Part shown: positions 17,547 to 45,694 of the stretch, one piece after another
How the letters are laid out: the number at the start of each line of letters is the position of its first letter
Position numbering within the stretch: the stretch's first letter is position 1
Origin: a plasmid
Length of the DNA stretch: 64,000 bases
Reading direction: 5' to 3' (one strand)
Assembly (NCBI RefSeq): GCF_058153355.1
Contig: NZ_JBLWLY010000002.1
The notes under the pieces: model-generated
Databases searched by the model: none
Seen by the model: the letters and a program-made list of their open reading frames with translations, nothing else
What the model was told of the DNA's origin: nothing
Made by a program: the position numbers and the translations under genes

Positions 17547-17547
17547 C

Positions 17548-20238: not shown

Positions 20239-20284
20239 TCTTTTTGCCTCGTTTTGAGTTTGTGTTTGTCTCAAATTGAGCATC

Positions 20285-20400
20285 CTTTATGTCGATGCAT
20301 CTTTTTGAGTTTTTGTTATTTCTTATTGTGACTCAATTTGAGTTCTTGTTGGTTTCTCATTTTGCGTCACAAACTGAGACGGAAACTACTTAACCAGGCC
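20285..20400. promoter_or_regulatory. parC: parC-like centromere/promoter repeats (approximate)
   Basis: repeated ttgag/tcaa motifs directly upstream of parM. Confidence 0.4.
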
Positions 20401-20589
20401 GTGCCGGCACGTTAACCGGGCTGCATCCGATGCAAGTGTGTCGCTGTCGCCGGCCTCCTCACCCGGTCACGTTTCGTCGTTCCTCCTCCACGCGCTGCGG
20501 CTTCGGGGCCGCACCTGCATTCGTATGCGGTCGCCCGGTTACAGGTGCGGCACGGCCTGATGGAGGCCGCATGTGAGAGGAGAATTCCC

Positions 20590-21516: not shown

Positions 21517-21899
21517 AGTATGACGGAGACGGGCGGGCAACCGCCCGTTTCTTTTCCGACAAAGGATGTCGCCGTGCTCCTCTTTTTACTGCGCCGGCTG
21601 ACGCGGCGCGGCATAAACGCTGCCTGTGGTCAGTGTCCCGCGTCCGGCGGGCACGGGACGGGCGCTTTACCGCTCCGGGCTGGCGTCGGTGACAGTGTAC
21701 GCCAGCCCGTCGCCCTGTTCTGATGAACGCCCTTCAAGCCGCTTTCTCGGCATAACCTTGCCGTCAGAAAGACGACGGCTGCGGTATTCCACGGTCGGTC
21801 TGACCCGTTACCGGACGCGGTGAACAGCCCACAGGCAGCGGGGAACGGGCACCACAGGGGTGCCCTCCCGGTGCCCTCTGTAAGAGAAGGAGCGTTGTT

Positions 21900-22583: not shown

Positions 22584-22805
22584 ATGAACTATGCCGGACA
22601 CGAAAAACTTCGCGCCGAAGTGGCGGAGGTGGCCAACACCATGTGTGACCTTCGGGCCAGGCTGAACGATATGGAGCATCGCTGTCGCTTTGATTCCGAT
22701 GTGCTTGTTGAACGCCTGACACGCCAGACGCTGTATCGCGCCAATCGCCTGTTCATGGAGGCATATACCGAAATTCTGGAACTGGATTCCTGCTTCAAAG
22801 ATTGA
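22584..22805 (+). CDS. hypothetical protein
   Basis: 73-aa ORF immediately after the methyltransferase gene. Confidence 0.4.
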   Translation: MNYAGHEKLRAEVAEVANTMCDLRARLNDMEHRCRFDSDVLVERLTRQTLYRANRLFMEAYTEILELDSCFKD

Positions 22806-23251
22806 GGGGAGAGAGTATGTACGGAACATGCGAAACGCTCTGCCGGGAGCTGGCAGCAAAGTATCCGGGAGACACGCCGTTGATGCTGGTTGTCTGGTCC
22901 CCGGAAGAGATTCAGGCCCTCGCTGACGGAATGGATATTTCCCTGTCCGATCATGAAATCAGGACCGTCCTGGCGCGCCTGGAGGACATCCCGGAAGACC
23001 AGCGAATTGAGTCCGGTATTTCTTCCTCCGCGGCGATGGAGATTATCAGCAACGTGAGCGAAAACCGCCAGGTGACCGTCCCTGCTGAACTGCTGGCGTC
23101 CCTGATTCAGACCGCTGAACAGGCATTGTGGAAGCGTGAATGGGCCGCCCGTGATTACGGCCTCGCCGTCCCGGAATGCGTTACCCGCCGTCAGGCGGTG
23201 GTTAATCAGGCCCGCATCCTGCTGAAAAACAACACGCACGAAAACGACTGA
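22802..23251 (+). CDS. hypothetical protein
   Basis: 149-aa ORF; start overlaps the upstream stop. Confidence 0.5.
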   Translation: MRGESMYGTCETLCRELAAKYPGDTPLMLVVWSPEEIQALADGMDISLSDHEIRTVLARLEDIPEDQRIESGISSSAAMEIISNVSENRQVTVPAELLASLIQTAEQALWKREWAARDYGLAVPECVTRRQAVVNQARILLKNNTHEND

Positions 23252-23296
23252 TGTTATCGCCGCCTGCGGGCGGCGATACAGGGAGAACGATTAATC

Positions 23297-24073
23297 ATGA
23301 ACGAAAACACAACGCTGAATGCACTGATTTGTCGTCACGCCCGAGACCTGCTGCTGGCGCAGGGCTGGCCGGAAGAGACGGATGTTGACCAGCGGAACCC
23401 GAAGTATCCGGGCTGGATCAGCATTTATGTTCTGCTGGATGCGCCCCGGCTGGCGACGTTACTTATCAACCGTCACGGCGGCGCACTGCCGCCACTCCTG
23501 GCCTCCGCCATTCACAAACTGACCGGAACCGGGGCGGAACTTGTACTGTCCGGCAGTCAGTGGCAGTCGCTGCCGGTACTTCCGGCAGACGGAACGCAGG
23601 TGTCTTTCCCGTATGCCGGTGAGTGGCTGGCAGAGGATGAAATCAGGGCAGTTCTTGATGCGGTACGCGATGCAGTACGCTGTGTCAGTTACCAGGTGGC
23701 AGAAGATACGCGGCGTATCCGGGCGGCGCTGACCACAACCGGTCAGACGTTACTGACCCGCCAGACGCGCCGCTTTCGCCTGGTCGTGAAGGAAAGCGAT
23801 CACCCCTGCTGGCTCGATGAGGACGACGAAAACCTGCCCGTGGTGCTCGATGCCATCCTGAACCGGGGCGCACGTTTTTCGGCGGTGGAAATGTATCTGG
23901 TCAGCGATTGTATTGAGCATATCCTGTCCAGTGGGCTGGCCTGCGATGTGCTGCGTATACCGGATGAACCGCCCCGCCGGTGGTTTGACCGTGGTGTTCT
24001 GCGGGAGGTGGTCCGGGAAGCCCGGGCCGAAATTCGCAGCATGGCGGATGCCCTGGCAAAAATCCGGAAATGA
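23297..24073 (+). CDS. hypothetical protein
   Basis: 258-aa ORF, same strand as the preceding block. Confidence 0.5.
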
Positions 24074-28086: not shown

Positions 28087-29910
28087 GTGTGTCACGAAGG
28101 AGTACTTATGGCAACAATGTGAAAATTGCAGCATAAGTTATCCATGCTCTGAGGTGGGTGGAGGTGGGCCCTCCGGTCAGGGTTTACAGGAGCACTGACC
28201 AAACGACCCGGTGCTGCTTCATTCTAAGGAATGAGGTGGTGAGCGACTCGGGAAAAGGCAGAGATCTACTGTCACGTGGGGTTCGGGAAGCTGAACGAAA
28301 GTAAACTGTCCGATGAAGCATCGAAATCTTAGATGATGTCAAAATGGGGCCGTACAGCCGTCCCCTGATAAGCGCAGAAGACACCTGCTTACTGACTGCG
28401 CGGCATCCGGTGTGAAGGCAGCAGGATCCCGGGCCAGACCATCTCAGGGAACGTGAGAACCTGTTTCCGGCACGTATCGGGAAACAGGGGCGGACCCATT
28501 CGTAGTAGTGATGAAAGATCTGTAATGGGTCTGGAGCGAAGGGATGGGGATCACATTCATTGCAGAAGACACAACCCAAAAGGGGATGACGTAACTGATG
28601 CAACGAAAATCATTTGAAATACCAAAAGCACTGGTCTGGGCATCATATCTGGATGTGCGTCGCAACAAGGGAGCCCCCGGATGCGACGGGCAGACTTTGA
28701 AAATGTTCGACCAGCAACGTGATGGCAATCTATACAAGATCTGGAACCGGCTATGTTCGGGAACATGGTTTCCGCCACCAGTGCTGGAAAAACGGATCCC
28801 GAAGTCGAATGGCAAGGAACGCATTCTGGGGATCCCAACAGTATCCGATCGAATTGCTCAGGGAGCGATAAAACTTTTCATGGAAGAAAAGCTTGACCCG
28901 ATTTTCCATGCTGATTCATATGGTTACCGACCAGGCAAATCAGCTCATGACGCTCTGAAACAATGTGCCATCCGGTGCTGGCGTTATAGCTGGATACTGG
29001 AAGTGGACATCAGTGCGTTTTTCGACCATGTGAGACATGATCTGGTGCTCAAAGCTCTGGAACACCACGGGATGCCTAAATGGGTCATCCTGTACTGTCG
29101 ACGCTGGATGGAAGCGCCAATGCAGAGTTGTGAAAATGGAGAATTAATAACCCGAACACGAGGCACTCCGCAGGGCGGGGTCATTAGTCCACTACTTGCT
29201 AACTTGTTCCTTCACTATGCATTTGATTTGTGGATGGAAAGAGAATATCGGGGGGTACCGTTTGAGAGGTACGCTGACGATATTGTAGTACATTGTTCAC
29301 GAATGAGTGATGCAACAAGGCTGAAGAACAGGTTATCGGAGCGCTTCTCGGAAGTCGGGCTGGTCCTGAATGCAGGGAAAACGAATATCGCCTACATTGA
29401 CACGTTTAAAAGGAGAAACGTCGCAACGAGTTTCACCTTTCTCGGATATGACTTCAAAGTGCGTACGCTGAAGAATTTCAAAGGCGAACTGTACCGAAAA
29501 TGCATGCCGGGTGCGTCAAATGCAGCAATGCGCAAAATAACAGAAACAATCAAGAAGTGGCGTATACATCGCTCAACAGCTGAGAGTTTGCTGGATTTTG
29601 CGAGGCGCTACAATGCGATAGTGAGAGGCTGGATCGAGTACTACGGAAAGTTCTGGTCCAGAAATTTCAACTATCGACTGTGGAGTGCAATGCAGTCACG
29701 TCTGCTCAAGTGGATGCAGTCTAAATACAGACTTTCGAACCGGAAGGCTCAGCGAAAGCTGACGCTGGTAAGGAAGGAGTATCCGAAGCTATTTGTTCAC
29801 TGGTATTTACTACGTGCATCAAATGAGTGATCAAGAGCCGTATGACGCGAGAGTGTCACGTACGGTTCCGTGAGCAGCCGGGGAGTGAAATTCTCTCCGG
29901 CTGACTCGAC
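28087..29910 (+). mobile_element. bacterial group II intron, copy 2
   Basis: same sequence as copy 1 in opposite orientation; begins gtgtg after ...aaaaactggctct and ends ...gactcgac before tcgcgggttctgac. Confidence 0.8.
28598..29830 (+). CDS. group II intron-encoded reverse transcriptase/maturase
   Basis: 410 aa, identical to ORF 4768..6000. Confidence 0.85.
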   Translation: MQRKSFEIPKALVWASYLDVRRNKGAPGCDGQTLKMFDQQRDGNLYKIWNRLCSGTWFPPPVLEKRIPKSNGKERILGIPTVSDRIAQGAIKLFMEEKLDPIFHADSYGYRPGKSAHDALKQCAIRCWRYSWILEVDISAFFDHVRHDLVLKALEHHGMPKWVILYCRRWMEAPMQSCENGELITRTRGTPQGGVISPLLANLFLHYAFDLWMEREYRGVPFERYADDIVVHCSRMSDATRLKNRLSERFSEVGLVLNAGKTNIAYIDTFKRRNVATSFTFLGYDFKVRTLKNFKGELYRKCMPGASNAAMRKITETIKKWRIHRSTAESLLDFARRYNAIVRGWIEYYGKFWSRNFNYRLWSAMQSRLLKWMQSKYRLSNRKAQRKLTLVRKEYPKLFVHWYLLRASNE

Positions 29911-30156: not shown

Positions 30157-31503
<1,347 letters not shown>

Positions 31504-31511
31504 AGAGGGAT

Positions 31512-31860
31512 GTATCAGCAGTGACTGAAGGTTGACCTGCTGAAGTGCGAGCTGTGCGGAGGTCAGATGCGGTTTACGGGGCTGAAGAGGGGTTACCGTC
31601 TGGCAGAGCAGGTTATGATGCATGAGCCGCTGGCACGAATGCGGTGGTGCGGCTGAGCGCCGCAGAGGGGAAGTTGCGTCCATGTTGAGGGGAACGGAGC
31701 AAAAAACCATCAGAGATATATTGAATCAATCAATGTAAGCAATATCAACTGTCTATACCAATTACGTGATGATCAGGTCGTGTTGAATAAACGCGCATTC
31801 TTCGGTGCTTTTCTAATCTTTTGGGGATTTAAGTTCCTGTCGATGAACTGCTGGCGCTGC
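31512..31860. repeat. second copy of the 350-bp IS-derived segment at 848..1200
   Basis: near-identical sequence; here flanked by an IS66 fragment and an IS1 fragment. Confidence 0.7.
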
Positions 31861-31880
31861 TTACCCCTTTTACCATCGGT

Positions 31881-32096
31881 ATGTTGACCACTGACGAATG
31901 GGGTAGTTACACCAGAGAGTTACCGAAGGAGAAGTATCTGACTGGTAAGATTTTTACTCAGCGCATTGAGCGCAACAATCTGCCCCTGAGAACCCGAATC
32001 AAACGCCTGGCTCGCAGAACCATCTGTTTCTCTCGCTCTGTAAAATTTCATGAAAAAGTTATCGGTGCTTTTATCGAAAAACATATGTTCTACTAA
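31881..32096 (+). pseudogene. IS1 InsB C-terminal fragment
   Basis: 71-aa ORF with InsB-like KIFTQRIERNNLPLRTRIKRLARR...HEKVIGAF; IS1-like end ggtgatgact (complement) at 32101..32110. Confidence 0.65.
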
Positions 32097-32490
32097 TTGG
32101 AGTCATCACCCTTTTCCTCTTGGTGTTATCCCATCAATATTTCGGCCACGTGGTTTACGTTTATTATTGATAATAATCAATGAACTGCCGAGTAAAAATA
32201 ACTGCTGATATACGGGATCCCATGTCAACTCCCGTATTATATATTATACCCCAATAGGGTTACATTATTAATGTATGTAAATGTTAATTAATCAAAACAT
32301 TAATCAATTGTTATATAATGCATCACAGGTAAACACCAAATCAACGCAAGTATAATATAGTAAAAATGGTTCATATTTTGGTACTGTTTGGTTTTTTCGT
32401 TTTTAACGGGTGGATATTTGTCTATTTTTTTTTTAAATTATTTGTGTGCTTTCCATAAATAATGGGGTGTAAGTTATTAACTCTAAATTA

Positions 32491-33033
32491 GTGAGTATTA
32501 AATATATTGTGTTTATCTCTGCTTTATTAATTTCCAATACGGGAAAGGGGGGCGAACAGCGAGTTGTTTTCAATGTGGATATTGTAGGTTCTGCCTGTCA
32601 TGTGGTGGTGGATGCGGACGGTTTCGGCAACAGTGGCCGACTGATATTCGGGACTTACCGTAAATCCACTGGCGCACCTGTATTGCCACGTGACTTCGTT
32701 GTGCGCTTGTATGAGTCCGGCGCTACGGTTCAAGGGTGTTCAGCCTTTCGAGCGGGGCAGGTCGCAACTCTGGATTTTGGTAACCCGGGCCAGCTGGACG
32801 CAAAGGGAGTGGTCACTCGCGGTGCTGGTGATGGTATTCGCGTGGATGTACGGGCGGTGGATACACAGGCGGATTATCGCGGACGTCTGACTCAGGACAG
32901 TCATTCGGTGAATTACCCGGTGGAGTTTGCTGTTAAGGGACAGTTCCGTTTTCGTGCACAGCCGGTGTTTCCGGTGAACGTGAAGGCAGGGGAATACACA
33001 GGGGCGCTGACCTTTGTGGTCACGTATCAGTAA
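32491..33033 (+). CDS. K88/F4-type minor fimbrial subunit (FaeC-like position)
   Basis: 180-aa ORF immediately upstream of the usher gene; AT-rich promoter region upstream. Confidence 0.55.
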
Positions 33034-33044
33034 CAGAGGAAAGT

Positions 33045-35480
33045 GTGTGTGCAGGAAAGAAGGGGGCAGAGCTGGTTTTGTTCTTGTTTTTTCGTCGGGC
33101 CGCGCTTGCTGTATCAGTCGCTTTCGCCAGTGCCACAGGTGTTGCAGGTGAAAAACTGGATATGTCCTTTATTCGGGGTGGTGCCGGGATTAATCCGGAA
33201 GTCTGGGCAGCGCTGAACGGCAGCTATGCACCGGGACGTTATTTGGTTGACCTGTCCCTGAACGGGAAGGAAGCCGGGAAACAGATACTGGATGTGACAC
33301 CACAGGACAGTGATGAACTGTGCCTGACAGAGGCATGGCTGACGAAGGCCGGGATTTACGTCAGTGCAGATTACTTTCGTGAGGGATATGACGCCACACG
33401 GCAGTGTTATGTGCTGACAAAAGCGCCGTCAGTGAAGGTGGATTTTGATGTTTCCACTCAGAGTCTGGCGCTGTCCCTTCCCCAGAAGGGGCTGGTGAAG
33501 ATGCCGGAGAACGTGGACTGGGATTACGGGACTGGTGCATTTCGCGTGAACTATAACGCGAACGCCAACACCGGCCGGAATAACACCTCGACCTTTGGCT
33601 CGGCAGATCTGAAGGTTAATATTGGGCACTGGGTGGTGAGTTCTTCTGCCTCAGCCAGCGGTGGTGACAGCGGGGATAACTCCGCCACGATAAACGCGTT
33701 CACGGCCACCCGGGCCATCCGCGCACTGAGTGCGGACCTGACGGTCGGGAAAACATCCACCGGGAGCAGTCTGCTGGGCAGTACGGGAACGTACGGAGTG
33801 TCGCTGAGCCGGAACAACAGCATGAAGCCGGGCAATCTGGGGTATACCCCGGTGTTCAGCGGCATTGCGAACGGGGCGTCGAGGGTGACACTGACACAGA
33901 ACGGGCGGTTGCTGCATTCGGAGATGGTGCCGGCAGGTCCGTTCTCCATCACGGATGTGCCGCTGTACACCAGTGGGGATGTGACCATGAAAATCACCGG
34001 CGAGGACGGTCGTGAGCAGACTCAGGTCTTCCCGTTGTCGGTGATGGCCGGGCAGTTAAGCCCGGGACAACACGAGTTCAGCGTGGCAGTCGGTTTGCCT
34101 GACGATGACAGTGACCTGAAAGGCGGCGTGTTTGCGGCGTCATACGGTTACGGTCTGGATGGACTGACGCTGCGCACCGGGGGCGTGTTTAACCGGGACT
34201 GGCAGGGTATTAGCGCCGGGGCTGTCCTGGGGCTGAGTTATCTGGGGGCAGTGTCTGCTGACGGGGCTTATGCCATGGCGAAATACCGTGACGGCAGCCG
34301 CAGCGGAAATAAGGTGCAGTTATCCTGGAGTAAACAACTGGAGATGACGAACACCGGACTGCGGGTGAGCTGGTCACGGCAGAGTGAGGAATATGAGGAC
34401 ATGTCCTCCTTTGACCCGACAGAGCTGTGGTCGCAGTCAAATCATGGTCGCCGGCCGAAGGATGAATGGAATGCCGGTATCAGTCAGTCGGTGGGGGGGC
34501 TGTTCAGTCTGTCGGTGTCCGGCTGGCAGCGGAGTTATTACCCGGCACAGATGACGGGCCGTTATCGGTACAGCGATGACAATGGTCTGGACACAGGGAT
34601 TACCGGTACCCTGAGCACACAGATTAAGGGCGTCAGTCTGAATCTGGGCTGGTCCGGCTCACGGAATTCGCAGGGAGAGAATAACAGGTCGGCGTCAGCC
34701 TCTATCTCGGTGCCATTCACGCTGTTTGAGCGTCGCTACAGCAGCAGTACGTCGGTGAGTACCAGCAAAGGCGGTGGCACGGGCTTCAGCACTGGCGTGT
34801 CCGGCTCGCTGAATGACCGTTTCAGCTATGGCTTGGGCGGCGGTCGTGATAGCGGTGGTGGTGTGAGTAGTTATCTAAACGCGTCGTACAGTGGTGACCG
34901 GGCTTATCTGAATGGTGCCCTGAACCACTCACAGTCCGGCGGAACCAGTGGTTCTGTATCAGTCAGCGGTTCGGTACTGGTCGTCCCGACGGCGAAAGAC
35001 ATTATGTTCAGCCGCACGACCGGGGACACCGTGGCCGTGGTGAACGTGAAGGATACACCGGGTGTGAAGGTGACGTTCGGTGACGGACAGACTGACAGCG
35101 ACGGCAACCTGGTGGTACCGCTGAACAGCTATGACTGGAACACGGTGACGATTGATGCGGGCACACTGCCGCTGAGCACCGAACTGACGAACACCAGTCA
35201 GAAGGTGGTGCCGACGGACAAGGCGGTGGTCTGGATGCCGTTTGATGCCCTGAAAGTCAAGCGTTACCTGCTGCAGGTGAAGCAGCGTGACGGTGAGTTT
35301 GTGCCAGGGGGAACCTGGGCACGTGACAGTAAGAACACACCGCTGGGCTTTGTAGCTAACAATGGTGTGCTGATGATTAACACGGTGGATGCGCCGGGTG
35401 ATATCACCCTAGGCCAGTGCCGGATACCTGCGGCCAGACTGCAGGATACTGAGAAACTACAGGAGATTACGTGTGAGTAA
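33045..35480 (+). CDS. fimbrial outer-membrane usher (FaeD-like)
   Basis: 811-aa ORF, usher-sized, between subunit and chaperone genes. Confidence 0.85.
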   Translation: MCAGKKGAELVLFLFFRRAALAVSVAFASATGVAGEKLDMSFIRGGAGINPEVWAALNGSYAPGRYLVDLSLNGKEAGKQILDVTPQDSDELCLTEAWLTKAGIYVSADYFREGYDATRQCYVLTKAPSVKVDFDVSTQSLALSLPQKGLVKMPENVDWDYGTGAFRVNYNANANTGRNNTSTFGSADLKVNIGHWVVSSSASASGGDSGDNSATINAFTATRAIRALSADLTVGKTSTGSSLLGSTGTYGVSLSRNNSMKPGNLGYTPVFSGIANGASRVTLTQNGRLLHSEMVPAGPFSITDVPLYTSGDVTMKITGEDGREQTQVFPLSVMAGQLSPGQHEFSVAVGLPDDDSDLKGGVFAASYGYGLDGLTLRTGGVFNRDWQGISAGAVLGLSYLGAVSADGAYAMAKYRDGSRSGNKVQLSWSKQLEMTNTGLRVSWSRQSEEYEDMSSFDPTELWSQSNHGRRPKDEWNAGISQSVGGLFSLSVSGWQRSYYPAQMTGRYRYSDDNGLDTGITGTLSTQIKGVSLNLGWSGSRNSQGENNRSASASISVPFTLFERRYSSSTSVSTSKGGGTGFSTGVSGSLNDRFSYGLGGGRDSGGGVSSYLNASYSGDRAYLNGALNHSQSGGTSGSVSVSGSVLVVPTAKDIMFSRTTGDTVAVVNVKDTPGVKVTFGDGQTDSDGNLVVPLNSYDWNTVTIDAGTLPLSTELTNTSQKVVPTDKAVVWMPFDALKVKRYLLQVKQRDGEFVPGGTWARDSKNTPLGFVANNGVLMINTVDAPGDITLGQCRIPAARLQDTEKLQEITCE

Positions 35481-36255
35481 GCGTAACGCAGTAACGACGT
35501 TTTTCACTAACCAGGTGACAAAAGCACTGGGAATGACGCTGGCGCTGATGATGAGCTGTCAGAGTGCGGTGGCTTCCCTGGCGGCAGACCAGACCCGCTA
35601 TATCTTTCGCGGGGACAAGGATGCGCTGACCATCACGGTCACCAACAATGACAAGGGACGTACCTTTGGTGGTCAGGCATGGGTGGACAATATCGTGGAG
35701 AAAGACACCCGTCCGACTTTTGTGGTGACGCCGTCCTTCTTCAAGGTGAAGCCGAATGGTCAGCAGACACTGCGTATCATCATGGCCTCGGACCATCTGC
35801 CGAAGGATAAAGAGTCGGTGTACTGGCTGAACCTGCAGGATATTCCGCCGGCTCTGGAGGGCAGCGGTATTGCAGTGGCGCTGCGTACGAAACTGAAACT
35901 GTTCTATCGCCCGAAGGCACTGCTTGAAGGTCGCAAGGGGGCAGAAGAAGGCATCAGTCTGCAGAGCCGCCCGGATGGCAGGACCATGCTGGTGAACACC
36001 ACGCCATACATTTTTGCGATTGGCAGCCTGCTGGACGGAAACGGAAAGAAAATTGCCGCGGATAACGAGACGGCGCAGAAACTGCTGATGTTCATGCCGG
36101 GTGATGAAGTACAGGTGAAGGGAAATGTGGTGAAAGTGGACTCCCTGAATGATTACGGTGAACTGCAGACATGGACGATTAACCAGAAGAAATCAGCAAT
36201 ATCGTCTGCACAGAAGTCATCTGATACAGAGGGTAATTCATCTGATAAAAAATAA
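35473..36255 (+). CDS. periplasmic fimbrial chaperone (FaeE-like)
   Basis: 260 aa with signal peptide; start overlaps usher stop. Confidence 0.8.
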   Translation: MSKRNAVTTFFTNQVTKALGMTLALMMSCQSAVASLAADQTRYIFRGDKDALTITVTNNDKGRTFGGQAWVDNIVEKDTRPTFVVTPSFFKVKPNGQQTLRIIMASDHLPKDKESVYWLNLQDIPPALEGSGIAVALRTKLKLFYRPKALLEGRKGAEEGISLQSRPDGRTMLVNTTPYIFAIGSLLDGNGKKIAADNETAQKLLMFMPGDEVQVKGNVVKVDSLNDYGELQTWTINQKKSAISSAQKSSDTEGNSSDKK

Positions 36256-36289
36256 TCGCCCTCCGGCATACGGAACAGAGGGGTAATAA

Positions 36290-36781
36290 ATGAAGAAAAC
36301 AATGATGGTAGTCGCCTTGGCCCTGAGTGCACTCAGTATTCAGTCAACACTTGCCGCTGAATACAGCGAGAAAGCGCAGTATCTGGGGGTGGTGAATGGC
36401 CAGGTGGTGGGTAACAGCGTGGTGAAGGTAACCCGCACACCGACAGATCCGGTGCTGTACCGGAGTGGAGACACGACGCCTCTTCCCGACCGCCTGACCA
36501 TCCGTAATGCAGAATCCAGAGCAGCATCTGGTGGCTTGGCGTATATCACGGTGAAACAGGTGCTGCCTGATAACGGGGAAGCCCGCATCACCCTGAAGAC
36601 GGCCCTGATGGTTGATGGAAAGAAAGTGGCAATCAGCGCCAGACAGCAGGGTGAGGATATGGTGATAACTTTGCCGGAAGCACAGAAGCAGATTGAATTA
36701 AGAACGGATGCACCGGCAGAGCTGGAAGTACCGGTCAGTTACCGGGGAAATCTGCAGATAGCGCTGCAGGTGGAGGACTGA
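36290..36781 (+). CDS. minor fimbrial subunit (FaeF-like)
   Basis: 163 aa with signal peptide MKKTMMVVALALSALSIQSTLA. Confidence 0.6.
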   Translation: MKKTMMVVALALSALSIQSTLAAEYSEKAQYLGVVNGQVVGNSVVKVTRTPTDPVLYRSGDTTPLPDRLTIRNAESRAASGGLAYITVKQVLPDNGEARITLKTALMVDGKKVAISARQQGEDMVITLPEAQKQIELRTDAPAELEVPVSYRGNLQIALQVED

Positions 36782-36994
36782 GGATTCATTTCCTTTATAA
36801 ATGCAGTACATCCCGTGATTCCGGAGCGGGTCATATTGGTAAAGGGATTTACCGTCTTTTAAAACGGGAATAACGTAAAACAATTCTGAGTTAAACACTG
36901 TGTTTAATGAAATGCGGTTATTTAAATGAATCCGCAGGGGATGGTTTTGCGGTAATTCCGGGGAAATAAGGATTACTGATTCAGTTTATTATTT

Positions 36995-37819
36995 ATGAAA
37001 CGTCAAGGTGATTATTTTATGAAAAAGACTCTGATTGCACTGACTGTGGCTGCTTCTGCCGCAGTATCCGGCTCTGCTATGGCGTGGAATCCCGCTGGCC
37101 TTGGTGGCAACGGTGGCACCTTTAGCATGAGTGGTACTCTGAGCAAAGCTGCGAAAGTAGTACCGTGGGCAGTGGAAATAGGTGCTCCGGTAACAGCGCT
37201 TGATGTGACCGTTAAACCTGACCAGAAGAATGTTTTCATTCTTTTAGAAAAAGACATACCGATACTTGGCATTCGTAGCGCCCCGCAGGGTTTCATAGGG
37301 GAAAAGGGTATTGCCCCACAAATCGATTATAATAAAGCCGCTAATTTTGATTATATGGATAAGGGGAATTTACCTGCGGAAATTGATGTCACATCATCTG
37401 ATGGTAAGAAAATTGGTACTCTGGCGTTCGTAATGCGAGTTGCCTGTCAGGCCAGCGAAAAGAAGGGTGAAAGCGACGACAAGTTAAATAGTAGCATGCT
37501 ATTCGCTGGTTCAAAAGGTAAAGCTTTCTTTGGTGGAGTTGCCAAAGATGAAAAGGGTATCTGGAGTGACGCCGCTGCCTATACTTGGGCTACCCACCTT
37601 TTTAGCAGTATTGCTGACTCGTGGGATACTAAAATTCCTTACACGGCGGGCGATGCAGATGAAACCGACTTCAGTGATGGAAACAGTATTTACCGAGGTT
37701 ACTATGCATCCGGCCTTGTCAAGGGTATGCCCATGGAACTAACTCTTGATCAGACTATAACGTCTGCTACCCCAATTCCGTGGAAAGCTTCTCTGCCAAT
37801 TGTTATCTCCTACATGTAA
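36995..37819 (+). CDS. major fimbrial subunit (FaeG-like)
   Basis: N-terminus MKKTLIALTVAASAA...AWNP resembles K88 FaeG MKKTLIAL...AW; 274-aa ORF, probable start about 37020. Confidence 0.75.
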   Translation: MKRQGDYFMKKTLIALTVAASAAVSGSAMAWNPAGLGGNGGTFSMSGTLSKAAKVVPWAVEIGAPVTALDVTVKPDQKNVFILLEKDIPILGIRSAPQGFIGEKGIAPQIDYNKAANFDYMDKGNLPAEIDVTSSDGKKIGTLAFVMRVACQASEKKGESDDKLNSSMLFAGSKGKAFFGGVAKDEKGIWSDAAAYTWATHLFSSIADSWDTKIPYTAGDADETDFSDGNSIYRGYYASGLVKGMPMELTLDQTITSATPIPWKASLPIVISYM

Positions 37820-38032
37820 TTCAGCAGTGTTCAGCAGTAAGCACTTACCCGTTTACTGCTGATTAAAACTTCAGAACACAGTTTCCGGTGACCCGACCTG
37901 AATATACAGAACCGGTATGTCAGAACAGGTGTTTTTCTGTTGGAGTGTCTTGTGACGCATATTGGTTCTGTGCTTTTTTTAACAAAATTATTTTATTGAG
38001 CTGTTTTGTTTTATCCGGATAAACAGGAATGA

Positions 38033-38836
38033 ATGCCGATGAAAATAACGCATCATTATAAATTCTTCCTTTCTGCTGTTATTTTGGTAACCATATTTTA
38101 TTCGGCAGTGCCATATGCAAATATTCTTGATGGCGGCGAAATTCAGTTTAATGGCTATGTTACTGATGAAGCACCCAAATGGGCCTGGCAGATAAGTTCT
38201 CCCGACCAGACTTGGTCTGTGGATACTGCCGATGCCCGTACAGAGAACGGGCAACTGGTTTTTAATTTGCATGATAAAGGGGCTCTGCCATTTCTGGAGG
38301 GACATCTGCATGATGTGGCTGAGCGCGGTGGTCCCGGATTCACGCCATTTATTACTTTCAGCAGTAACGGACAGCCTTTTACTGTGACGGAAGGAAATGG
38401 TGCCTCAGCACAGCACTTTCGCGCCTCTGTCCCGGTGCGTGACCCGGAGACGGGGAACGTGTCGGGACAGCTTTTTTTTACCCTGAATCAGGGAATGGCG
38501 GTCAGTACCGGCAGACAGGACGACGGGGCATCCGTACCGGCTGGCATGTCGCTGGTCAGTGGACAGAGTGTGACGGATGTACAGCCGGGAAGTCTGCCAC
38601 AGGGGCTGAAAGCCCGACTCTCTTCCCTGTTACTGATGAATCAAAATTTTGGCAATGGCATGAATGCGGTGGATAACGGACAGGTTATCAACCAGGGGAT
38701 ACTGACTGACGGTCGGGTGATGGATCTGGCTGCGGCATATGCCTCTGCGGTGTCGGATTTTGAACTGCGGTTGCCGGCAGAGGGTACACCTGCAGCATGG
38801 CAGGCGGGGCTGAATGTGACGGTTACAGTACAGTGA
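38033..38836 (+). CDS. minor fimbrial subunit (FaeH-like)
   Basis: 267 aa with signal peptide; position after major subunit. Confidence 0.6.
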
Positions 38837-38865
38837 TGGTTGCAGGGATATAAGGAGAGAAGAGA

Positions 38866-39630
38866 ATGAAAAAGGTGGCGTTGTTTCTGTTTGCTGCTAG
38901 CCACCTGCCTTCCTGTGTACTGGCTTGGAACACGCCAGGAGAAAATTTCAGCGGAGAGCTTAAGCTGGAAGGCCCGGTGACCAGTACCCGTAACCCGTGG
39001 GTATGGAAAGTCGGGCAGGGAAATGAAGGTCTGGAGGTTAAACAGAGCCGCGGTGTTCGTGGCGGTGGGGAGGGGATTCAGGTCGAACTGCCGGCGATGA
39101 CCGTTTTACTGGGAAAAACCACCCTGACCACACCGGCAGGACGTGAGGGGCTTTCACCCCGGGTCAGTTATGGAAAAGGCACTGAGGGGTTTTCACTTGT
39201 ATGGACAGCGCCTGGCATGGCTGAAGTGACGCTACCTGTCACCGGAGATAATAATGCCCGGGCAGGCACATTTGTTTTCAGAATTCAGGCTGTGGGGGTG
39301 TTGCGCCATGTGCAGGGCGGACAACCGGTGTATGTTGGTATGTATGACGACCTGAATACGAATGGTTTGCCAGGTGAAAGCACTGCCATGAAGGTTTCTG
39401 ATATTCCGGGCGTTCTGCAGAAGATGTTCAGTGGGGAAGGCCCCGGCTGGCTTCAGACAATGACACTCAGTGGTTATTCAGGGGTGAGTCATTTCAGTGA
39501 TGACTTCCTGCGCCAGGTTGAAGGTGTGTATGGTGCACAGACTGTGGCTGGCAGTGGTGAATTACGGCTGAACGGCGAGATGCCGGAACACTGGAGGGTG
39601 TCACTGTCAGTAAACATTGAATATCAGTAA
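38866..39630 (+). CDS. minor fimbrial subunit (FaeI-like)
   Basis: 254 aa with signal peptide ending AWNTPGE, similar N-terminus to the major subunit. Confidence 0.6.
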   Translation: MKKVALFLFAASHLPSCVLAWNTPGENFSGELKLEGPVTSTRNPWVWKVGQGNEGLEVKQSRGVRGGGEGIQVELPAMTVLLGKTTLTTPAGREGLSPRVSYGKGTEGFSLVWTAPGMAEVTLPVTGDNNARAGTFVFRIQAVGVLRHVQGGQPVYVGMYDDLNTNGLPGESTAMKVSDIPGVLQKMFSGEGPGWLQTMTLSGYSGVSHFSDDFLRQVEGVYGAQTVAGSGELRLNGEMPEHWRVSLSVNIEYQ

Positions 39631-39953
39631 GGAGCAGGAGTGCGTTTTATAATCCGGAGATAAGGAACGTCGGTTACTGTAAGATTGGGGAGTTGTGTTG
39701 ATAGCGGGAGTGGCTGGAATAAGTGGTATACATAGATAAAAATTAAAACTATCACTATTTGAGGAGTTTTTTCCTGCTCTCCATGGGCTTTATAGCTCAC
39801 AAAAAATAGAATAATATTATTAATTATTCTGCTTTTTTATGGGCATTCCCCCTTGAAAAATGAGTTTGTGCCAGAATATTATTAATGTGTTTTTTGTGAT
39901 TTACTAATCAAGGATTGCTGAATAGCATCCAGTACTGAATATTTTGTTCAATT

Positions 39954-41180
39954 ATGTCAGGAACCATACCGAAAATCAAAACAGGTGAAAATGTTCTGTC
40001 TGCAGCCATTCAGCGCATTGAATGGCTATTTGGAACGTTTCCTTCTGTCTGCTTGTCCTTTTCTGGTGGTAAGGATTCTACCGTGCTTTTCCATCTTGTG
40101 TCCGAAGTGGCCCGCAAAAAGAGGCGTCGTTTTTCGGTATTGTTCATTGACTGGGAAGCACAATATCAATGCACCATTACGCATATTCAGAAGATGCAGA
40201 AGATGTACCTGGATGTGACGGACAGGTTTTACTGGGTGGCCCTTCCCCTGACTACGGTAAACGGTGTCTCTCAGTTTCAGCCGGAGTGGATATGCTGGGA
40301 GCCTGGTGTGACCTGGGTTCGCCATCCACCGGAATATGCTATTACGGATATGGCGTATTTTCCCTTTTACCGATATGCCATGACCTTTGAGGAATTTATC
40401 CCGGCGTTTTCCTCCTGGTTTGCCAGGGATAAATACCTGGTGGCTGTTCTGACCGGAGTCCGGGCAGATGAGTCCCTCAACCGCTTTATGGGACTGGTAT
40501 CCCGTCGCAAACAGAGATATGCCGATGATAAACCCTGGACTACGGCATCACCTGAAGGGTTTTATTACACCATGTATCCGTTGTATGACTGGAAAGCCCG
40601 TGATATCTGGATATATAACGCCAGAACCCGAGCTATCTACAATCCCCTGTATGACCTGATGCACCGTGCCTGTGTGCCGTTACGCAACATGCGTGTCTGT
40701 GAGCCTTTTGGTCCTGAACAGCGTAAGGGGCTGTGGCTTTATCATGTTCTGGAGCCGGAAACCTGGGCCAAGATGTGTGAGCGGGTGTCGGGTGCTGCCA
40801 GCGGGGCGCTTTATGCCAATGAGAGCGGTGCCTATTTTGCCCTGCGTAAGCGTATCACGAAGCCGCCTCATCATACCTGGCGTAGCTATGCGATGTTCCT
40901 GCTGGATGTGATGCCGGAAAGAACGGCAGAACATTACCGTAACAAAATTGCTGTCTACCTGCGCTGGTATCAGACGCGAGGCTTCCCGGATGACATTCCG
41001 GATGAACAGGAGAATGACCTGGGGGGCCGGGATATCCCGTCCTGGCGACGCATCTGTAAAACACTCATAAAAAATGATTTCTGGTGCCGGACCCTCTCCT
41101 TCAGTCCGAACAAAGCCCGGCACTATGAACGTTACCTGCAGCGTATGAAGGAAAGGAGGAAGGAATGGGGGATTCTGTGA
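39954..41180 (+). CDS. PAPS-reductase-family (PP-loop) protein, IbrA-like
   Basis: 408 aa with PP-loop motif SFSGGKDS near the N-terminus. Confidence 0.7.
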   Translation: MSGTIPKIKTGENVLSAAIQRIEWLFGTFPSVCLSFSGGKDSTVLFHLVSEVARKKRRRFSVLFIDWEAQYQCTITHIQKMQKMYLDVTDRFYWVALPLTTVNGVSQFQPEWICWEPGVTWVRHPPEYAITDMAYFPFYRYAMTFEEFIPAFSSWFARDKYLVAVLTGVRADESLNRFMGLVSRRKQRYADDKPWTTASPEGFYYTMYPLYDWKARDIWIYNARTRAIYNPLYDLMHRACVPLRNMRVCEPFGPEQRKGLWLYHVLEPETWAKMCERVSGAASGALYANESGAYFALRKRITKPPHHTWRSYAMFLLDVMPERTAEHYRNKIAVYLRWYQTRGFPDDIPDEQENDLGGRDIPSWRRICKTLIKNDFWCRTLSFSPNKARHYERYLQRMKERRKEWGIL

Positions 41181-41803
41181 CACCGGAGATACTTGGCAAC
41201 ATGATTCGTCAGTATTTCAGTCAGGTACGAACTGAAAAAGAGAGCATACAGGCTCTGAATCATCTGCGCAGAGTGCTTCATGAGGTCAGTCCTTTTGCAC
41301 AGGAGCCTGTGGACTGTGTGTTGTGGGTGAAAGCGGATGAGGTGGTGGCCAACGATTACAACCCTAATGTCATGGCACTAGGTGAGAAAAAACTACTGAA
41401 ACAGTCTCTGGAGAAAGATGGTTTCACACAACCGGTGGTGGTGTCAGAGGAGAAGAATCATTATCTGGTGGTGGATGGTTTTCATCGTCAGTTACTGGGG
41501 CGGGAAGCAGATACAGGAAAACGCCTGAGGGGCTGGTTGCCTGTAGTCTGTATTAATCCGGAGAGAAAGGGACAGGCCGCACGTATTGCCGCGACCATTC
41601 GACATAACCGGGCCAGGGGGAAACACCAGATCACTTTAATGTCTGATATTGTCAGGGATCTTTCACGTCTGGGCTGGACGAATGAACGTATTGGTACAGA
41701 GCTGGGAATGGACCAGGATGAAGTGCTGAGGCTGAAACAGATTAGCGGGCTGACAGAGTTGTTTCAGGAAGAGGATTTCAGCCCGGCTTGGACGGTTCGT
41801 TGA
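41165..41803 (+). CDS. ParB-like nuclease-domain protein, IbrB-like
   Basis: 212 aa with VVDGFHR (ParB/DGQHR-type motif); start overlaps upstream stop. Confidence 0.7.
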   Translation: MGDSVTPEILGNMIRQYFSQVRTEKESIQALNHLRRVLHEVSPFAQEPVDCVLWVKADEVVANDYNPNVMALGEKKLLKQSLEKDGFTQPVVVSEEKNHYLVVDGFHRQLLGREADTGKRLRGWLPVVCINPERKGQAARIAATIRHNRARGKHQITLMSDIVRDLSRLGWTNERIGTELGMDQDEVLRLKQISGLTELFQEEDFSPAWTVR

Positions 41804-42030
41804 TGCTGTTAAATATGGGCGGTATTTCTGAAAGTTGATACTTTGGGTAGAAAAAATGATACCGGAAACTATGAAGGATGTGCTTGTCAGGTGACTAGAC
41901 ACCATAGGTCTTAGGCTTTGATAACGGGATAAGATGAGCTGCTTTTCTCATACCATCAGGTGTGATGATGTCGCAGATTTACAAAATCTGATTGATTCTA
42001 AAGATGTATAAGTAAGGAAAAAGTTTTGAT

Positions 42031-42915
42031 ATGAAAAAACAGATATTTATTAATAATAAACCTCCTGTAGTCCCTTATTCAGGGGCGCACGCGAAAATAT
42101 TTAAATACATTGAAATCCCTCTGCCGTTTTTCTACTTTATCTATACATCAGGCGAACCATTCCACATGTCTGTCCAAAATACTGTTATTTATGTATCAAA
42201 ATACAATGGTATATTTATTAATAAATCAGTTCCTTTTTCTTTTTTATTTGACAGAGATATATCTGTTCTTCAAAGAAGAGATATTTGTGTTGTGCGATTT
42301 ACGTCAGAGGAGATAAGTGAACATAATGTTTTATTTGATCATGACTTTGAACGATTAAAAAAAATTTCCAAAGCTCAGCTTATATCTCCCGATTATGTTT
42401 TGATTGATTTTTCTAGTGGGGGGGAGGATGAATCCTACGCAATGTCCTGGTTAATATCTCAGTGTACTCATCAGTATACAGATAATAAAAAGACGGAGAC
42501 AGATGCTATTTACGATAAAGTGCGGAGTTCTTATTTGCTTTCATGTATTCTGCAAAAAAACGAAAATGTTGGGCTTATTCTTCATGCACCATCATTTGTT
42601 TCTGTGTCTGAAAAAATCGCCAGAATTGTGATGGCAAATTACTCCCGTAACTGGAGTACTTCCGAGTTGGCCAGTGCGGTTTTAATGAGTGAATCTTCTT
42701 TAAAAAGAAGAATGTACAAAGAGGTCGGTTCTATAAGTACATTTGTACATAAAATAAAGCTTACAGAAGCTATCAGGAAATTACGAAGGACAAATACTCC
42801 CATTTCTGTCATATCATCTGAGTTAGGTTACAGTTCACCATCGTATTTTTCTAAAGTTTTCTTTAAATATTTAAAGACATACCCTCAAAACATAAGGAAG
42901 AAAAATGGTCGGTAA
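42031..42915 (+). CDS. AraC-family transcriptional regulator (Rns/AggR-type position)
   Basis: 294 aa, low-GC gene; C-terminal region AraC-type HTH. Confidence 0.75.
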   Translation: MKKQIFINNKPPVVPYSGAHAKIFKYIEIPLPFFYFIYTSGEPFHMSVQNTVIYVSKYNGIFINKSVPFSFLFDRDISVLQRRDICVVRFTSEEISEHNVLFDHDFERLKKISKAQLISPDYVLIDFSSGGEDESYAMSWLISQCTHQYTDNKKTETDAIYDKVRSSYLLSCILQKNENVGLILHAPSFVSVSEKIARIVMANYSRNWSTSELASAVLMSESSLKRRMYKEVGSISTFVHKIKLTEAIRKLRRTNTPISVISSELGYSSPSYFSKVFFKYLKTYPQNIRKKNGR

Positions 42916-43102
42916 TGTCACCAATTAGGAGGACTTGCCGGGCCGCGTTGCAAGGATGAGCCCGCATTACGATTATTTCGTGCTCGATGGCGTACAGCTC
43001 ACCGATTAGTTTCAGTGCTTCTTCCGCTGTCGCGCTTTTGGTACTGATATATACATCGTGGACTTTGCGCCGCGCATGAGCCCAGCATCCTGCTTCCGTC
43101 AA
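42863..43102 (-). pseudogene. IS66 TnpC internal fragment
   Basis: 79-aa ORF matching [42 protein letters not shown] of copy B. Confidence 0.6.
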
Positions 43103-43144
43103 CGCGCCGCCTTCGTAAGCGGCTCGCCAGAACCGTATTGATAT

Positions 43145-44716
43145 TTACTGAGAGCTCAGATCAACTTTCCAGGGCAACAGATCGCGTACCCGGTTTGCCG
43201 GCCAGTCCTGGATATGTTCAATGACGTAACGCAGCCACTTTTCTGGCTCCACATTGTTCAGACGGCATGTGCCGATCAGCGAGTACAACACCGCAGCATG
43301 TTCACCACCGCTGTCAGAACCCGCGAAGAGCCAGTTTTTCCGGCCTACGGCCACTCCCCGTAAGGCGTTCTCTGCGATGTTGTTGTCGATTTCCACCCAG
43401 CCATTACTGCAGTACACGTTCAGTGCATCCCACTGTTTCAGCAGGTATGCGAACGCTTTTGCCGTGTCCGAGTGACGCGACAGTGTTTTCATCTGTTGCT
43501 GTATCCAGTCATACAGTGACTGCATCAGTGGCGCGGCTCTGGCTTTTCTTGCCGCCAGACGCTGTTCTGCTGAACAGCCCCGGACCTCTGCCTCGATGGC
43601 ATACAGTTCACCGATACGCTGCAGGGCTTCCGTGGTGATGTCGGTGGGCACTCTTGCATGCACATCGTGGATTTTTCTCCGGGCATGAGCCATACATGCG
43701 GCTTCCGTTATTCTGCCGGATTCGTACAACGCCCGGTAACCACCGTAAGCATCGGCCTGAAGCACTCCGCTGTAACCGGCCAGATGATTCTGTGGATGGA
43801 TACCTTTCCGGTCCGGGCTGTACGCGAACCAGACCGCCGGAGGCATTTCCGAACCGGCGTTACGGTCATCACGAACGTAGACCCACAGCCGGGCAGTCCT
43901 TGTTTTACCGCTGCCCGGCTCCTGGACCGGAACGGGGATATCATCGGCATGGACTTTACCGGGCATCAGCACATACTGGCGCAGGATGTCATACAGCGGT
44001 TCCAGCAGTTCAGCAACAGCACCTGTCCAGCGCCCCAGTGTGGCACGGCTCAGCTCCACGCCCTGACGACGGTATATTTCTGACTGGCGGTATAACGGCA
44101 GATGGTCTGCATATTTTCCAGCGACAACATGGGCCAGAAGCCCCGCTCCGGCATAACTGCGTGCAATGGGTTTTGAAGGCACCGGAGCCTGCACGATATG
44201 GTCGCACCGGCAACAGGCCAGTTTCGGACGTTGTGTTTCGATAACCTTAAAGGCGCTGCTGATAAGCTCCAGTTGCTCTGACACATCACATCCCAGAGAA
44301 CTGAGTTCGCCACCACAGGCCGGGCAGCATTCCTCTTCCGGACGGATGACCCGGGTTTCACGGGGAAGTGAGGCAGGTAACGGTTTACGGGCTGAAGACT
44401 GGCGCAGGGGAGATGGCAGTACCGGGTCATATTGCTCACCCAGCGTTTCCGCCATTTCTTCCTGAAGAGCGCTGATTCGCTCCTGTGCTTCCTGTATCTG
44501 CCGTTCGGTTTTTGCACGAAGTTTTTCTGAGCTTTTACCGAACTGCATGCGCTGCAGTTTTGCAACCAGCGCCTTCAGCCGGTTGATTTCGGAAGCATAA
44601 GCCGCCACCCGCTGTGAGAGCAGGCGGTTGTATTTCGCCATCTGGCGGATGGTGTCCTGTTGCGTCTGCAACAGTGCCCGCAGGCGGGCATTCTCATGAG
44701 CAAGTGAGGTGTCCAT
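43145..44716 (-). CDS. IS66 TnpC transposase
   Basis: 523 aa, intact. Confidence 0.85.
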
Positions 44717-44735
44717 ATCCTCACTTTACAACGGG

Positions 44736-45083
44736 TTATATGCGGATGCCAGCGCGTTCCGTTCGTTTCGGGTGTTTCCAGTCGATGCCCTCAAGAAGCA
44801 TGGATAACTGGGCCGGAGTAAGGTGCACCTTGCCGTCACGGGTGACCGGCCAGACGAAGCGGCCCCGCTCCAGGCGTCTGGTGAAGAGGCACAGTCCGTC
44901 ACTGTCAGCCCACAACACTTTTATCTGGTCACCCCGGCGTCCGCGGAAGATGAACAGATGCCCGGAGAACGGGTCATCCTTCAGGACGTTCTGAACTTTT
45001 GAGGCCAGGCCGTTAAAGCCATTTCGCATATCGGTGATACCTGCAACCAGCCAGATACGCGAACCTGCAGGGAAAGATATCAT
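44736..45083 (-). CDS. IS66 TnpB
   Basis: 115 aa. Confidence 0.8.
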   Translation of the reverse strand: MISFPAGSRIWLVAGITDMRNGFNGLASKVQNVLKDDPFSGHLFIFRGRRGDQIKVLWADSDGLCLFTRRLERGRFVWPVTRDGKVHLTPAQLSMLLEGIDWKHPKRTERAGIRI

Positions 45084-45694
45084 CAGTGGCTACTCCCTTT
45101 TATTTCGCGGATAAGTATCTGTAATAACGCCAGCGTCAGTTTACCTTTAAGCCTGAGAGTTCCGGCCGGCAGAACCAGCTCATAGCACAGACTGTCGGAC
45201 GGTGTATTTATCTGCTCTGGTTCCTGTGCCGGAGCCGGGATTTTATTATCCGGCTCCGGCGTTAACGTCACGGGAAGTAGCGATGTTTCATGTTCGCCGG
45301 GCGGCTGCAGGCCGCCGTTACGCCAGAGATGCCGCCAGTTAAAGAGCAGGTTATCGTTGATTCCATTCTCACGAGCTATTTGTGCGACACAGGCACCGGG
45401 TAAAAGAGTTTGCTGAACAAGTCTCCATTTAAACTCCGGTGAAAATCGGTTCCGGCGGGGTTTCTCTGCTTTCACAGGCTGAGTCACGGTCGGGGTTGAA
45501 GGATATCGCCCCGGGAAAAGAGCCCGGGCCAGTTGCCCGCAGGAATATTCGCCGGAAAGAGGCCAGTCAGTGAATACCTGGTGAAATCGCCTCACCAGAG
45601 AAAAAATGGCGGTTTTGCTGACACCAGTCTGCGCAGAAATGCGCGGGTACGACAGTGACTCGTCAAATCTCAGCTGTAGCACACGCAGGATCAA
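45083..45694 (-). CDS. IS66 OrfA with unusual 90-aa N-terminal extension
   Basis: C-terminal 110 aa orfA-like ([28 protein letters not shown]); N-terminal part unlike other copies. Confidence 0.5.
   Translation of the reverse strand: MILRVLQLRFDESLSYPRISAQTGVSKTAIFSLVRRFHQVFTDWPLSGEYSCGQLARALFPGRYPSTPTVTQPVKAEKPRRNRFSPEFKWRLVQQTLLPGACVAQIARENGINDNLLFNWRHLWRNGGLQPPGEHETSLLPVTLTPEPDNKIPAPAQEPEQINTPSDSLCYELVLPAGTLRLKGKLTLALLQILIREIKGSSH

Follow-up and report, generated by a model that had tools for sequence, protein, structure and literature searches.

Which fimbria does a K88-like operon build when its major subunit is not FaeG, and what turns that operon on where the K88 regulators FaeA and FaeB are missing? 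Both questions are raised by a plasmid-borne locus in NCBI RefSeq assembly GCF_058153355.1 (contig NZ_JBLWLY010000002.1), which we analysed within a window of 64,000 nucleotides, given as one strand from 5' to 3'. By its gene content the region is an intact island of ~11.5 kb, bounded by insertion sequences (IS) and carrying a kappa-class (K88/F4-backbone) chaperone-usher fimbrial operon; ten co-directional genes on the + strand occupy 32491-42915 in the list of open reading frames (ORFs), and all ten ORFs are intact (Table 1). We consider it likely that this is a K88-backbone operon on an IS-bounded island of the type found on pINV plasmids of Shigella and enteroinvasive Escherichia coli (EIEC), that its adhesin is diversifying, and that an AraC-family protein encoded 3' of the operon, not FaeA/FaeB, switches an AT-rich 5' promoter.

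To place the operon, we compared it gene by gene with the fae operon of porcine enterotoxigenic E. coli (ETEC) UMNK88 (pUMNK88_K88), our reference for K88 (F4). The two share their gene order, faeC-D-E-F-G-H-I across 32491-39630 here, and the ORF list bears out the first-pass annotation of this DNA, which had proposed seven genes in the order minor subunit, usher, chaperone, minor, major, minor, minor; all seven lie on the + strand and are full length compared with their homologues. Outside the major-subunit gene the DNA is 85-89% identical to that of K88, and the assembly proteins are 83-97% identical. The usher scored 1203.5 bits against the NCBIfam PefC/AfrB usher model NF011760 (cutoff 752), as a kappa-class usher should, and the chaperone matched the FaeE crystal-structure chains 3gew and 3f65 (phmmer E 2.8e-134), which identifies it as a PapD-like chaperone of the FaeE type. 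Homologues of the faeC-like and faeF-like subunits carry PF27684 (K88_fimbrial_pA) and PF17547 (DUF5462), respectively, and the faeH-like protein is 100% identical to its pINV copies. Together, the Fimbrial_K88 subunits (PF02432) and the gene order put the operon in the kappa class. K88 differs in having FaeA and FaeB upstream and FaeJ downstream, none of which is found here; in their stead this locus has an AraC gene on its 3' side, a pair of genes resembling ibrA and ibrB, and a 5' tract unlike that of K88. Searching the window by tblastn with FaeA and FaeB of the A30 chromosomal locus and with K88 FaeB gave no match, in agreement with the earlier remark that these regulators are not upstream, and no FaeJ homologue was found in the window, including the position after the faeI-like gene. 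Since the assembly proteins are 83-97% identical to those of K88 and the major subunit and FaeG share no more than 26.6% identity, we conclude from these identities that the assembly machine is genuinely fae-type and that, within the Fimbrial_K88 family, the major subunit is a protein other than FaeG. The K88/F4 label given at first pass thus stands for the backbone and fails for the major subunit; judged by gene content, a locus with neither FaeG, nor upstream FaeA/FaeB, nor faeJ is not F4 in the strict sense.

The major subunit is where the locus departs most from K88. Its match to FaeG is distant (E 7e-5), and phmmer searches against FaeG chains of the Protein Data Bank (E ~1e-3) aligned the C-terminal half only. 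The earlier suggestion that its N-terminus resembles FaeG therefore proved weak: the first ~94 nt of the gene, the part coding for the signal peptide, are indeed conserved across loci, as are the last ~50 nt, but nothing else in the gene is. DNA similarity between loci resumes ~50 nt before the end of the gene or in the next gene, leaving a hypervariable part at ~37089-37767. The protein is 89-92% identical to pINV alleles and 23-41% identical to alleles of other K88-like loci, whereas the assembly proteins are 76-100% identical across the same related loci. We found that 36 nonsynonymous and 3 synonymous differences separate the gene from that of S. sonnei 53G, with a ratio of nonsynonymous to synonymous substitution rates (dN/dS) of 3.65; against EIEC VL7S7 the ratio is 1.48. 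Compared with the other nine genes of the island, the excess is significant in both cases (Fisher p 7.5e-9 for S. sonnei 53G and 1.4e-5 for EIEC VL7S7). Among those nine, dN/dS is 0.08-0.32 in eight and undefined in the ibrB-like gene, which has zero synonymous differences. In these alignments the adhesin gene has the character of a cassette that evolves fast and can be exchanged between conserved ends, set within a scaffold under purifying selection. By analogy with FaeG, the 274-aa subunit would build the shaft and is probably also the adhesin.

This pattern bears on whether the island, like many adhesin loci of Shigella, is no longer expressed and survives on its IS-rich plasmid as a decaying relic. 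Such decay would fit the IS elements on both sides, the deletion of the operon from S. sonnei lineage 3 and S. flexneri, and the frameshifts in the AraC gene of some records. It fits poorly with ten intact ORFs in the window and with the low dN/dS of eight of the nine other genes, and a significant nonsynonymous excess is expected of an expressed, surface-exposed antigen under diversifying selection and not of neutral decay, which argues against a silent relic. We regard a relic as very unlikely.

The NCBI Prokaryotic Genome Annotation Pipeline (PGAP) labels the major subunit, and all Shigella/EIEC alleles, "cshE pilin"; this is an annotation only and not a test of identity. CS13 (csh), found in human ETEC, belongs to the K88 family, and its seven-gene operon (cshA-G) is arranged in the order seen here. 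In our attempts to retrieve authentic CS13 CshE (tblastn against plasmids, blastn against complete E. coli genomes, and a look-up of cluster members), only the Shigella/EIEC "cshE pilin" alleles were returned.

What, then, could regulate the operon? An AraC-family gene lies downstream, as the first-pass annotation had it, although two genes between it and the operon, the ibrA-like and ibrB-like pair, had been overlooked. Its product matched the DNA-binding domain of Rns (phmmer E 3.3e-9), and its homologues are recorded with PF12833 and PF00165; no NCBIfam equivalog model was reached, the best being HilC/HilD at 59-60 bits against cutoffs of 354-423. An AlphaFold2 model (predicted local distance difference test 80.7, predicted template modelling score 0.81) matched Rns, CsvR, and ToxT in Foldseek over both domains at full length (E 1e-12 to 1e-10, 264-282 aligned columns, template modelling score 0.56-0.73 normalised to target length, 14-18% identity). 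The model thus predicts the two-domain architecture of an N-terminal beta-barrel and a C-terminal double helix-turn-helix. The likeness to Rns/CfaD/CsvR of ETEC and ToxT of Vibrio cholerae is therefore one of structure over the full length and, for Rns, of sequence in the DNA-binding domain, with little identity over the aligned structure. Rns, CsvR, and ToxT are encoded by low-GC genes and activate AT-rich fimbrial or pilus promoters. We know of no K88-family operon among the targets of Rns. The AraC gene here is also low in GC and has a dN/dS of ~0.3, indicating purifying selection.

The position of this gene is conserved. Homologues of the AraC protein with 96, 87, 82, 81, 80, 70, 70, and 70% identity are all encoded directly 3' of seven-gene K88-like operons, in eight of the eight contexts whose contig was long enough to tell (the pINV copies, Escherichia albertii pEA29_1, pRHB04-C17_3, and five Logan/ENA contigs). 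Other K88 backbones carry other regulators: the A30 chromosomal locus (L004) has FaeA/PapI, FaeB, and FaeJ (11436-12475 and 19660-20433), and plasmid p2014C-3075 (L003) has 3' PsaE/PsaF-like genes (16052-17054). Regulator modules thus appear, by gene content, to have been swapped on one K88 scaffold. The pairing has precedents. A secondary source (PMC6440114) describes AraC/Caf1R-like putative regulators in the K88-related Lda (LdaA) and AF/R1 (AfrR) systems, of atypical enteropathogenic E. coli and strain RDEC-1, respectively. By that account an AraC-type regulator sits at both operons, the same design idea as here, and the gene positions may differ. By this analogy, attaching an AraC-type regulator to a K88-like locus is not new in principle. 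We additionally observed a second AraC gene on E. albertii pEA29_1 (L006; 25583-26449, ~73% similar in nucleotides to the AraC gene of the window), which adjoins a second, unrelated chaperone-usher cluster (15533-23705) with a PapB/FocB-type regulator.

Upstream of the operon is a non-coding tract that is AT-rich (31.8% GC in the composition window 32000-32499, which covers it) and bordered by an IS1 fragment, as first described. It holds no regulator-like ORF: none of at least 60 aa occurs in 32112-32490, and shorter ones were not compared for similarity. The tract aligns among all AraC-linked K88-like loci and is unrelated to the DNA upstream of the two loci without the AraC gene (p2014C-3075 and the A30 chromosome); the N-terminal signal region of the faeC-like protein is likewise common to AraC-linked loci only. 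Relative to pINV copies the tract is 93-95% identical, against 98% for the whole island, and it is one of two fast-diverging parts of the island, the other being the major-subunit gene.

Two features of the tract are conserved across loci. In an alignment of eight AraC-linked loci, the most conserved block is an element at 32340-32384, unique in the window and without a match in 100 shuffles. A degenerate pattern of this element occurred in all eight AraC-linked loci that have upstream DNA and in none of 12 other fetched loci, a count that is descriptive only because the pattern was derived from the same loci. We propose the element as a candidate activator-binding site. Downstream of it lies a putative sigma-70 promoter, whose hexamers and spacing are kept in all AraC-linked loci, mostly as TGGACA-17-TAAATT or TAAGTT; the pattern TGGA(C/T)A-17 nt-TAA(A/G)TT is unique in the window at 32411-32439. 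The T-rich spacer contains a run of ten T (32425-32434), which reads T8-C in most related loci. No length differences in this run were seen among aligned loci; a change in homopolymer length could modulate expression.

These observations suggest the following model. In K88, Sec exports the subunits, the FaeE chaperone takes them up, and they polymerise through the FaeD usher; by analogy, the subunits here would pass from Sec export to the FaeE-type chaperone and on to polymerisation by the FaeD-type usher. The faeC-like protein would sit at the tip, the 274-aa protein would form the shaft, and the faeF-, faeH-, and faeI-like proteins would be minor subunits. With the PapI/PapB-type FaeA/FaeB switch absent, transcription would most likely start from the promoter-like site at 32411-32439. 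AT-rich tracts of this type are often silenced by H-NS. The Rns/ToxT-type AraC protein would bind the element at 32340-32384 and thereby turn the promoter on, with the IbrA/IbrB-like pair possibly serving as an auxiliary activator, and the poly-G tract described below could switch the regulator, and hence the fimbriae, on and off. The first-pass suggestion of a different regulatory logic, or a variant of this fimbrial class, finds support in the absent FaeA/FaeB, in the synteny of the AraC gene in eight of eight contexts, and in a 5' tract conserved in AraC-linked loci only.

Several points weigh against control by the AraC protein. Every regulatory step of the model is inferred from synteny and conservation. 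The putative promoter is weak, with 8 of 12 consensus positions, and a simple promoter scan with a threshold of 9/12 listed no + strand site in the 5' tract; the scan missed 32411-32439 because it falls under that threshold, and the proposal therefore rests on cross-locus conservation. The faeC-like gene begins with a GTG codon that has no obvious Shine-Dalgarno sequence. AraC homologues at 62% identity (L012) and at 42-47% (Salmonella) have no K88-like neighbour, which confines the synteny argument to a clade of at least 70% identity. The AraC-linked loci may themselves be one clade with an inherited gene order, so that eight of eight would not represent eight independent events. On pWR100 of S. 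flexneri M90T the AraC ORF is intact though the fimbrial genes have been deleted, so the protein may have other targets, or the gene may not yet have decayed. Finally, loss of the operon from S. sonnei lineage 3 and S. flexneri indicates that it is dispensable for those pathogens.

Some of these points are what one would expect if the AraC gene were a passenger on the island, its product controlling some other target or none at all, with the operon driven by other factors or constitutively. The much lower GC of the gene (32-38%, against ~44-60% in the operon) suggests a separate origin, its more distant homologues stand elsewhere, for example beside a polysaccharide deacetylase/glycosyltransferase/acyltransferase cluster, and the intact M90T copy has outlived its fimbrial genes. 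A passenger would not readily explain why adjacency is kept in every context across 70-96% identity, with or without ibrAB in between, or why the distinctive 5' tract is co-inherited in AraC-linked loci only. The fold predicted for its product is of the class seen in activators dedicated to fimbrial and pilus operons, and the AraC gene of several S. flexneri plasmids is IS1-disrupted or only partly matched, which fits decay after loss of the target. On balance we think it unlikely that the AraC gene is a passenger, and we retain AraC control of the 5' promoter as the reading that we favour.

The IbrA/IbrB-like pair lies between operon and AraC gene and could itself be the main positive regulator, acting as IbrAB does on eib or as the ParB-family anti-silencer VirB does. 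The two genes overlap by 16 nt and form an IbrAB-type pair, in which the ParB_N match of the second protein is weak; PGAP names this product "IbrB-like domain-containing protein", and the first gene appears as "ybdN" in a published listing of the S. sonnei pINV island. As in IbrAB of E. coli ECOR-9 and YbdN/YbdM, a protein resembling PAPS reductase with DUF3440 is followed by an overlapping ParB-N-like protein; the likeness to the ECOR-9 pair is one of domains and PGAP name, and relatives are widespread in E. coli chromosomes. IbrAB of ECOR-9 activates eib adhesin genes according to Sandt 2002, as cited in PMC7649339. PADLOC found the IbrA-like protein weakly similar to the DNA-modification PP-loop enzymes BrxP (E 6e-7) and DndC (E 6e-5) and gave no match for the IbrB-like or AraC proteins.

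A leading role for the pair would agree with its place immediately 3' of many K88-like operons lacking the AraC gene (query span 590-9802; L003), an ibrA-like gene following the K88-like operons of several other plasmids, and with its presence near the A30 chromosomal operon, beside a PerC-like gene. The ibrA-like gene is under strong purifying selection (dN/dS 0.08), and the reported activation of eib points the same way. A promoter-like site, TTGAAA-18-TATTAT (10/12), stands ahead of ibrA at 39853-39882, in the gap of 39% GC between the faeI-like and ibrA-like genes, and suggests that ibrAB has its own promoter. Against this, no intact pair is present in four of the eight AraC-linked operons (L006, L014, L018, and L019), one of which retains an ibrA remnant, and the pair separates operon and AraC gene in only the other four; it is therefore not essential to the module. 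Copies with ~88% nucleotide identity occur in 2147 of 5426 complete E. coli genomes (40%), mostly on the chromosome, far more often than K88-like operons, which indicates that the pair is not operon-specific, and the ParB_N match has an E value of only 0.032. A main regulatory role for the pair is, in our view, rather improbable; as an auxiliary activator beside the AraC protein it remains, by analogy to IbrAB, a candidate.

A poly-G tract inside the AraC gene varies in length between records (Table 1). Either the regulator is phase-variable through slipped-strand mispairing, or the homopolymer was misread in sequencing. In most records the PGAP gene model is confined to the last 158 aa of the AraC protein (WP_005038443.1); some records also have a "partial" N-terminal piece, called a pseudogene, and the split falls at the G tract. 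We considered from these tables that the gene might be a split pseudogene in pINV, and this is ruled out by intact translations: the ORF is uninterrupted (294-296 aa) in the window, S. sonnei 53G, EIEC VL7S7, and pWR100, and only CFSAN029787 and pWR501 are out of frame. The N-terminal domain is conserved and confidently modelled. The truncated gene models look like an annotation artefact spread from frameshifted references.

The boldest form of the model would take this variation at face value. A self-contained module, made of the 5' promoter tract and the 3' AraC gene, would have replaced FaeA/FaeB, would be phase-variable through G7-G12 in Shigella/EIEC, and would use the IbrAB-like pair as a ParB-type co-activator or anti-silencer. 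We hold this full combination to be doubtful; if true, it would mean that organisms usually deemed non-fimbriate switch an antigenically diversifying adhesin ON and OFF.

Table 1. Features of the fimbrial island in the 64-kb window, with matching AraC and poly-G positions in related records
Feature	Position	Strand	Basis or remark
IS1 remnant (C-terminal transposase fragment and element end)	31881-32111	+	Left border of AT-rich tract
AT-rich non-coding 5' tract, 379 bp	32112-32490	+	Composition and conservation
Conserved upstream element ATCAAC...ATRGTAAAAATGG.TCAT.T.TTGGTA	32340-32384	+	~60-105 bp upstream of putative start site
Putative sigma-70 promoter: -35 TGGATA 32411-32416, 17-nt spacer, -10 TAAATT 32434-32439	32411-32439	+	Cross-locus conservation
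faeC-like minor (tip) subunit, 180 aa, GTG start	32491-33033	+	85% identical to K88 FaeC over residues 23-180
Outer-membrane usher (FaeD-like), 811 aa	33045-35480	+	92.7% identical to K88 FaeD
Periplasmic chaperone (FaeE), 260 aa	35473-36255	+	96.6% identical to K88 FaeE
faeF-like minor subunit, 163 aa	36290-36781	+	86.5% identical to K88 FaeF
Major subunit, presumed adhesin, 274 aa	36995-37819	+	Pfam Fimbrial_K88 full length, E 1.2e-45
faeH-like minor subunit, 267 aa	38033-38836	+	83.4% identical to K88 FaeH
faeI-like minor subunit, 254 aa	38866-39630	+	83.5% identical to K88 FaeI
IbrA/YbdN-like PP-loop protein	39954-41180	+	Pfam DUF3440 E 2.5e-24, PAPS_reduct E 1e-7
IbrB/YbdM-like ParB-N-domain protein	41165-41803	+	Weak match to Pfam ParB_N, E 0.032
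Rns/CsvR/ToxT-type AraC-family regulator, 294 aa, low GC	42031-42915	+	Sequence and fold matches
Right border: IS66 transposase fragment, then complete IS66-family element (tnpA, tnpB, tnpC)	42950-45694	-	NCBIfam transpos_IS66, IS66_TnpB, IS66_access_TnpA
Poly-G tract in AraC gene, window	42418-42424		G7, in frame
Poly-G tract, S. sonnei 53G and EIEC VL7S7			G8, in frame
Poly-G tract, EIEC CFSAN029787			G7 in G8 context, -1 frame
Poly-G tract, S. flexneri M90T pWR100			G12, in frame
Poly-G tract, S. flexneri M90T pWR501			G11, -1 frame
Poly-G tract, related records L001 and L002	16410-16417
AraC ORF, L001	16023-16907
AraC ORF, L002	16023-16907
AraC ORF, L005 (pWR100)	9001-9891

IS remnants flank the island as first described, IS1 and, farther left, IS66 fragments on one side and IS66 on the other, all by NCBIfam. 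The IS1 transposase fragment (31881-32096; transpos_IS1 E 1.5e-13) covers only profile positions 155-199 of 199, and the homologous position in EIEC VL7S7 pINV is annotated as a partial IS1 transposase. Homology to pINV stops at 42949, where the right border begins. The remainder of the window consists of IncFII/F-transfer backbone with many IS elements and shows 94-95% identity to plasmids of E. coli. No type III secretion system (T3SS) genes were seen in the 64-kb window, which is too short to settle the pINV status of the replicon. A group II intron reverse transcriptase/maturase is present twice, with identical NCBIfam scores (393.9 bits), in opposite orientation and ~23 kb apart, at 4768-6000 (- strand) and 28598-29830 (+ strand).

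The island itself is close to one already sequenced many times. It is 98% identical to EIEC VL7S7 pINV over 31491-42949, to S. sonnei 53G over 31918-42949, and also to plasmids of S. boydii and EIEC O96:H19 (CFSAN029787). These copies share the same ten genes, 5' tract, and IS1 remnant over 11-11.5 kb; the locus of the window differs in its major subunit, with a dN/dS above 1, in its 5' tract, in its IS66 right flank, and in surroundings of IncFII/F-transfer backbone rather than T3SS effector genes. Two recent S. sonnei papers list the pINV island as the "K88 (fae)" locus and leave the AraC gene and regulation unmentioned; they report its loss from S. sonnei lineage 3 and count this loss towards the signature of immune evasion that marks successful lineages. 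On pWR100 (L005, 8007-9891), only the AraC ORF, the ibrB-like gene in intact form, and the 3' end of ibrA are left beside IS2 and IS600, from which we conclude that the fimbrial genes of S. flexneri were lost through an IS-associated deletion. The first-pass annotation had named near-identity to a characterised operon with known regulators as what would tell against its proposal. That near-identity is present as far as a much-sequenced island goes, but the pINV island has been listed rather than functionally characterised, and we found no functional characterisation of it in the literature searched. The locus, which belongs to a well-known fimbrial family, is thus an allelic variant of a pINV island that others had sequenced and noted before, and for that reason the gain is incremental. 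What is new here is the absence of FaeA, FaeB, and FaeJ, the AraC synteny, the shared 5' tract, the Rns-type fold, the dN/dS of the adhesin, and the poly-G variation.

Functional fimbriae are usually held to be absent from Shigella and EIEC. The system described here is of a known kind, for which AraC-based control is plausible from the sequence evidence, and its promoter tract, candidate operator, and poly-G tract offer a testable handle on when the locus is expressed. Public annotation splits an AraC ORF that is intact in four translated sequences. A fae-type machine, a diversifying adhesin, and a likely Rns/ToxT-like switch would together bear on how the loss of the S. sonnei "K88" locus, and the immune-evasion signature of which it is held to be part, are understood.

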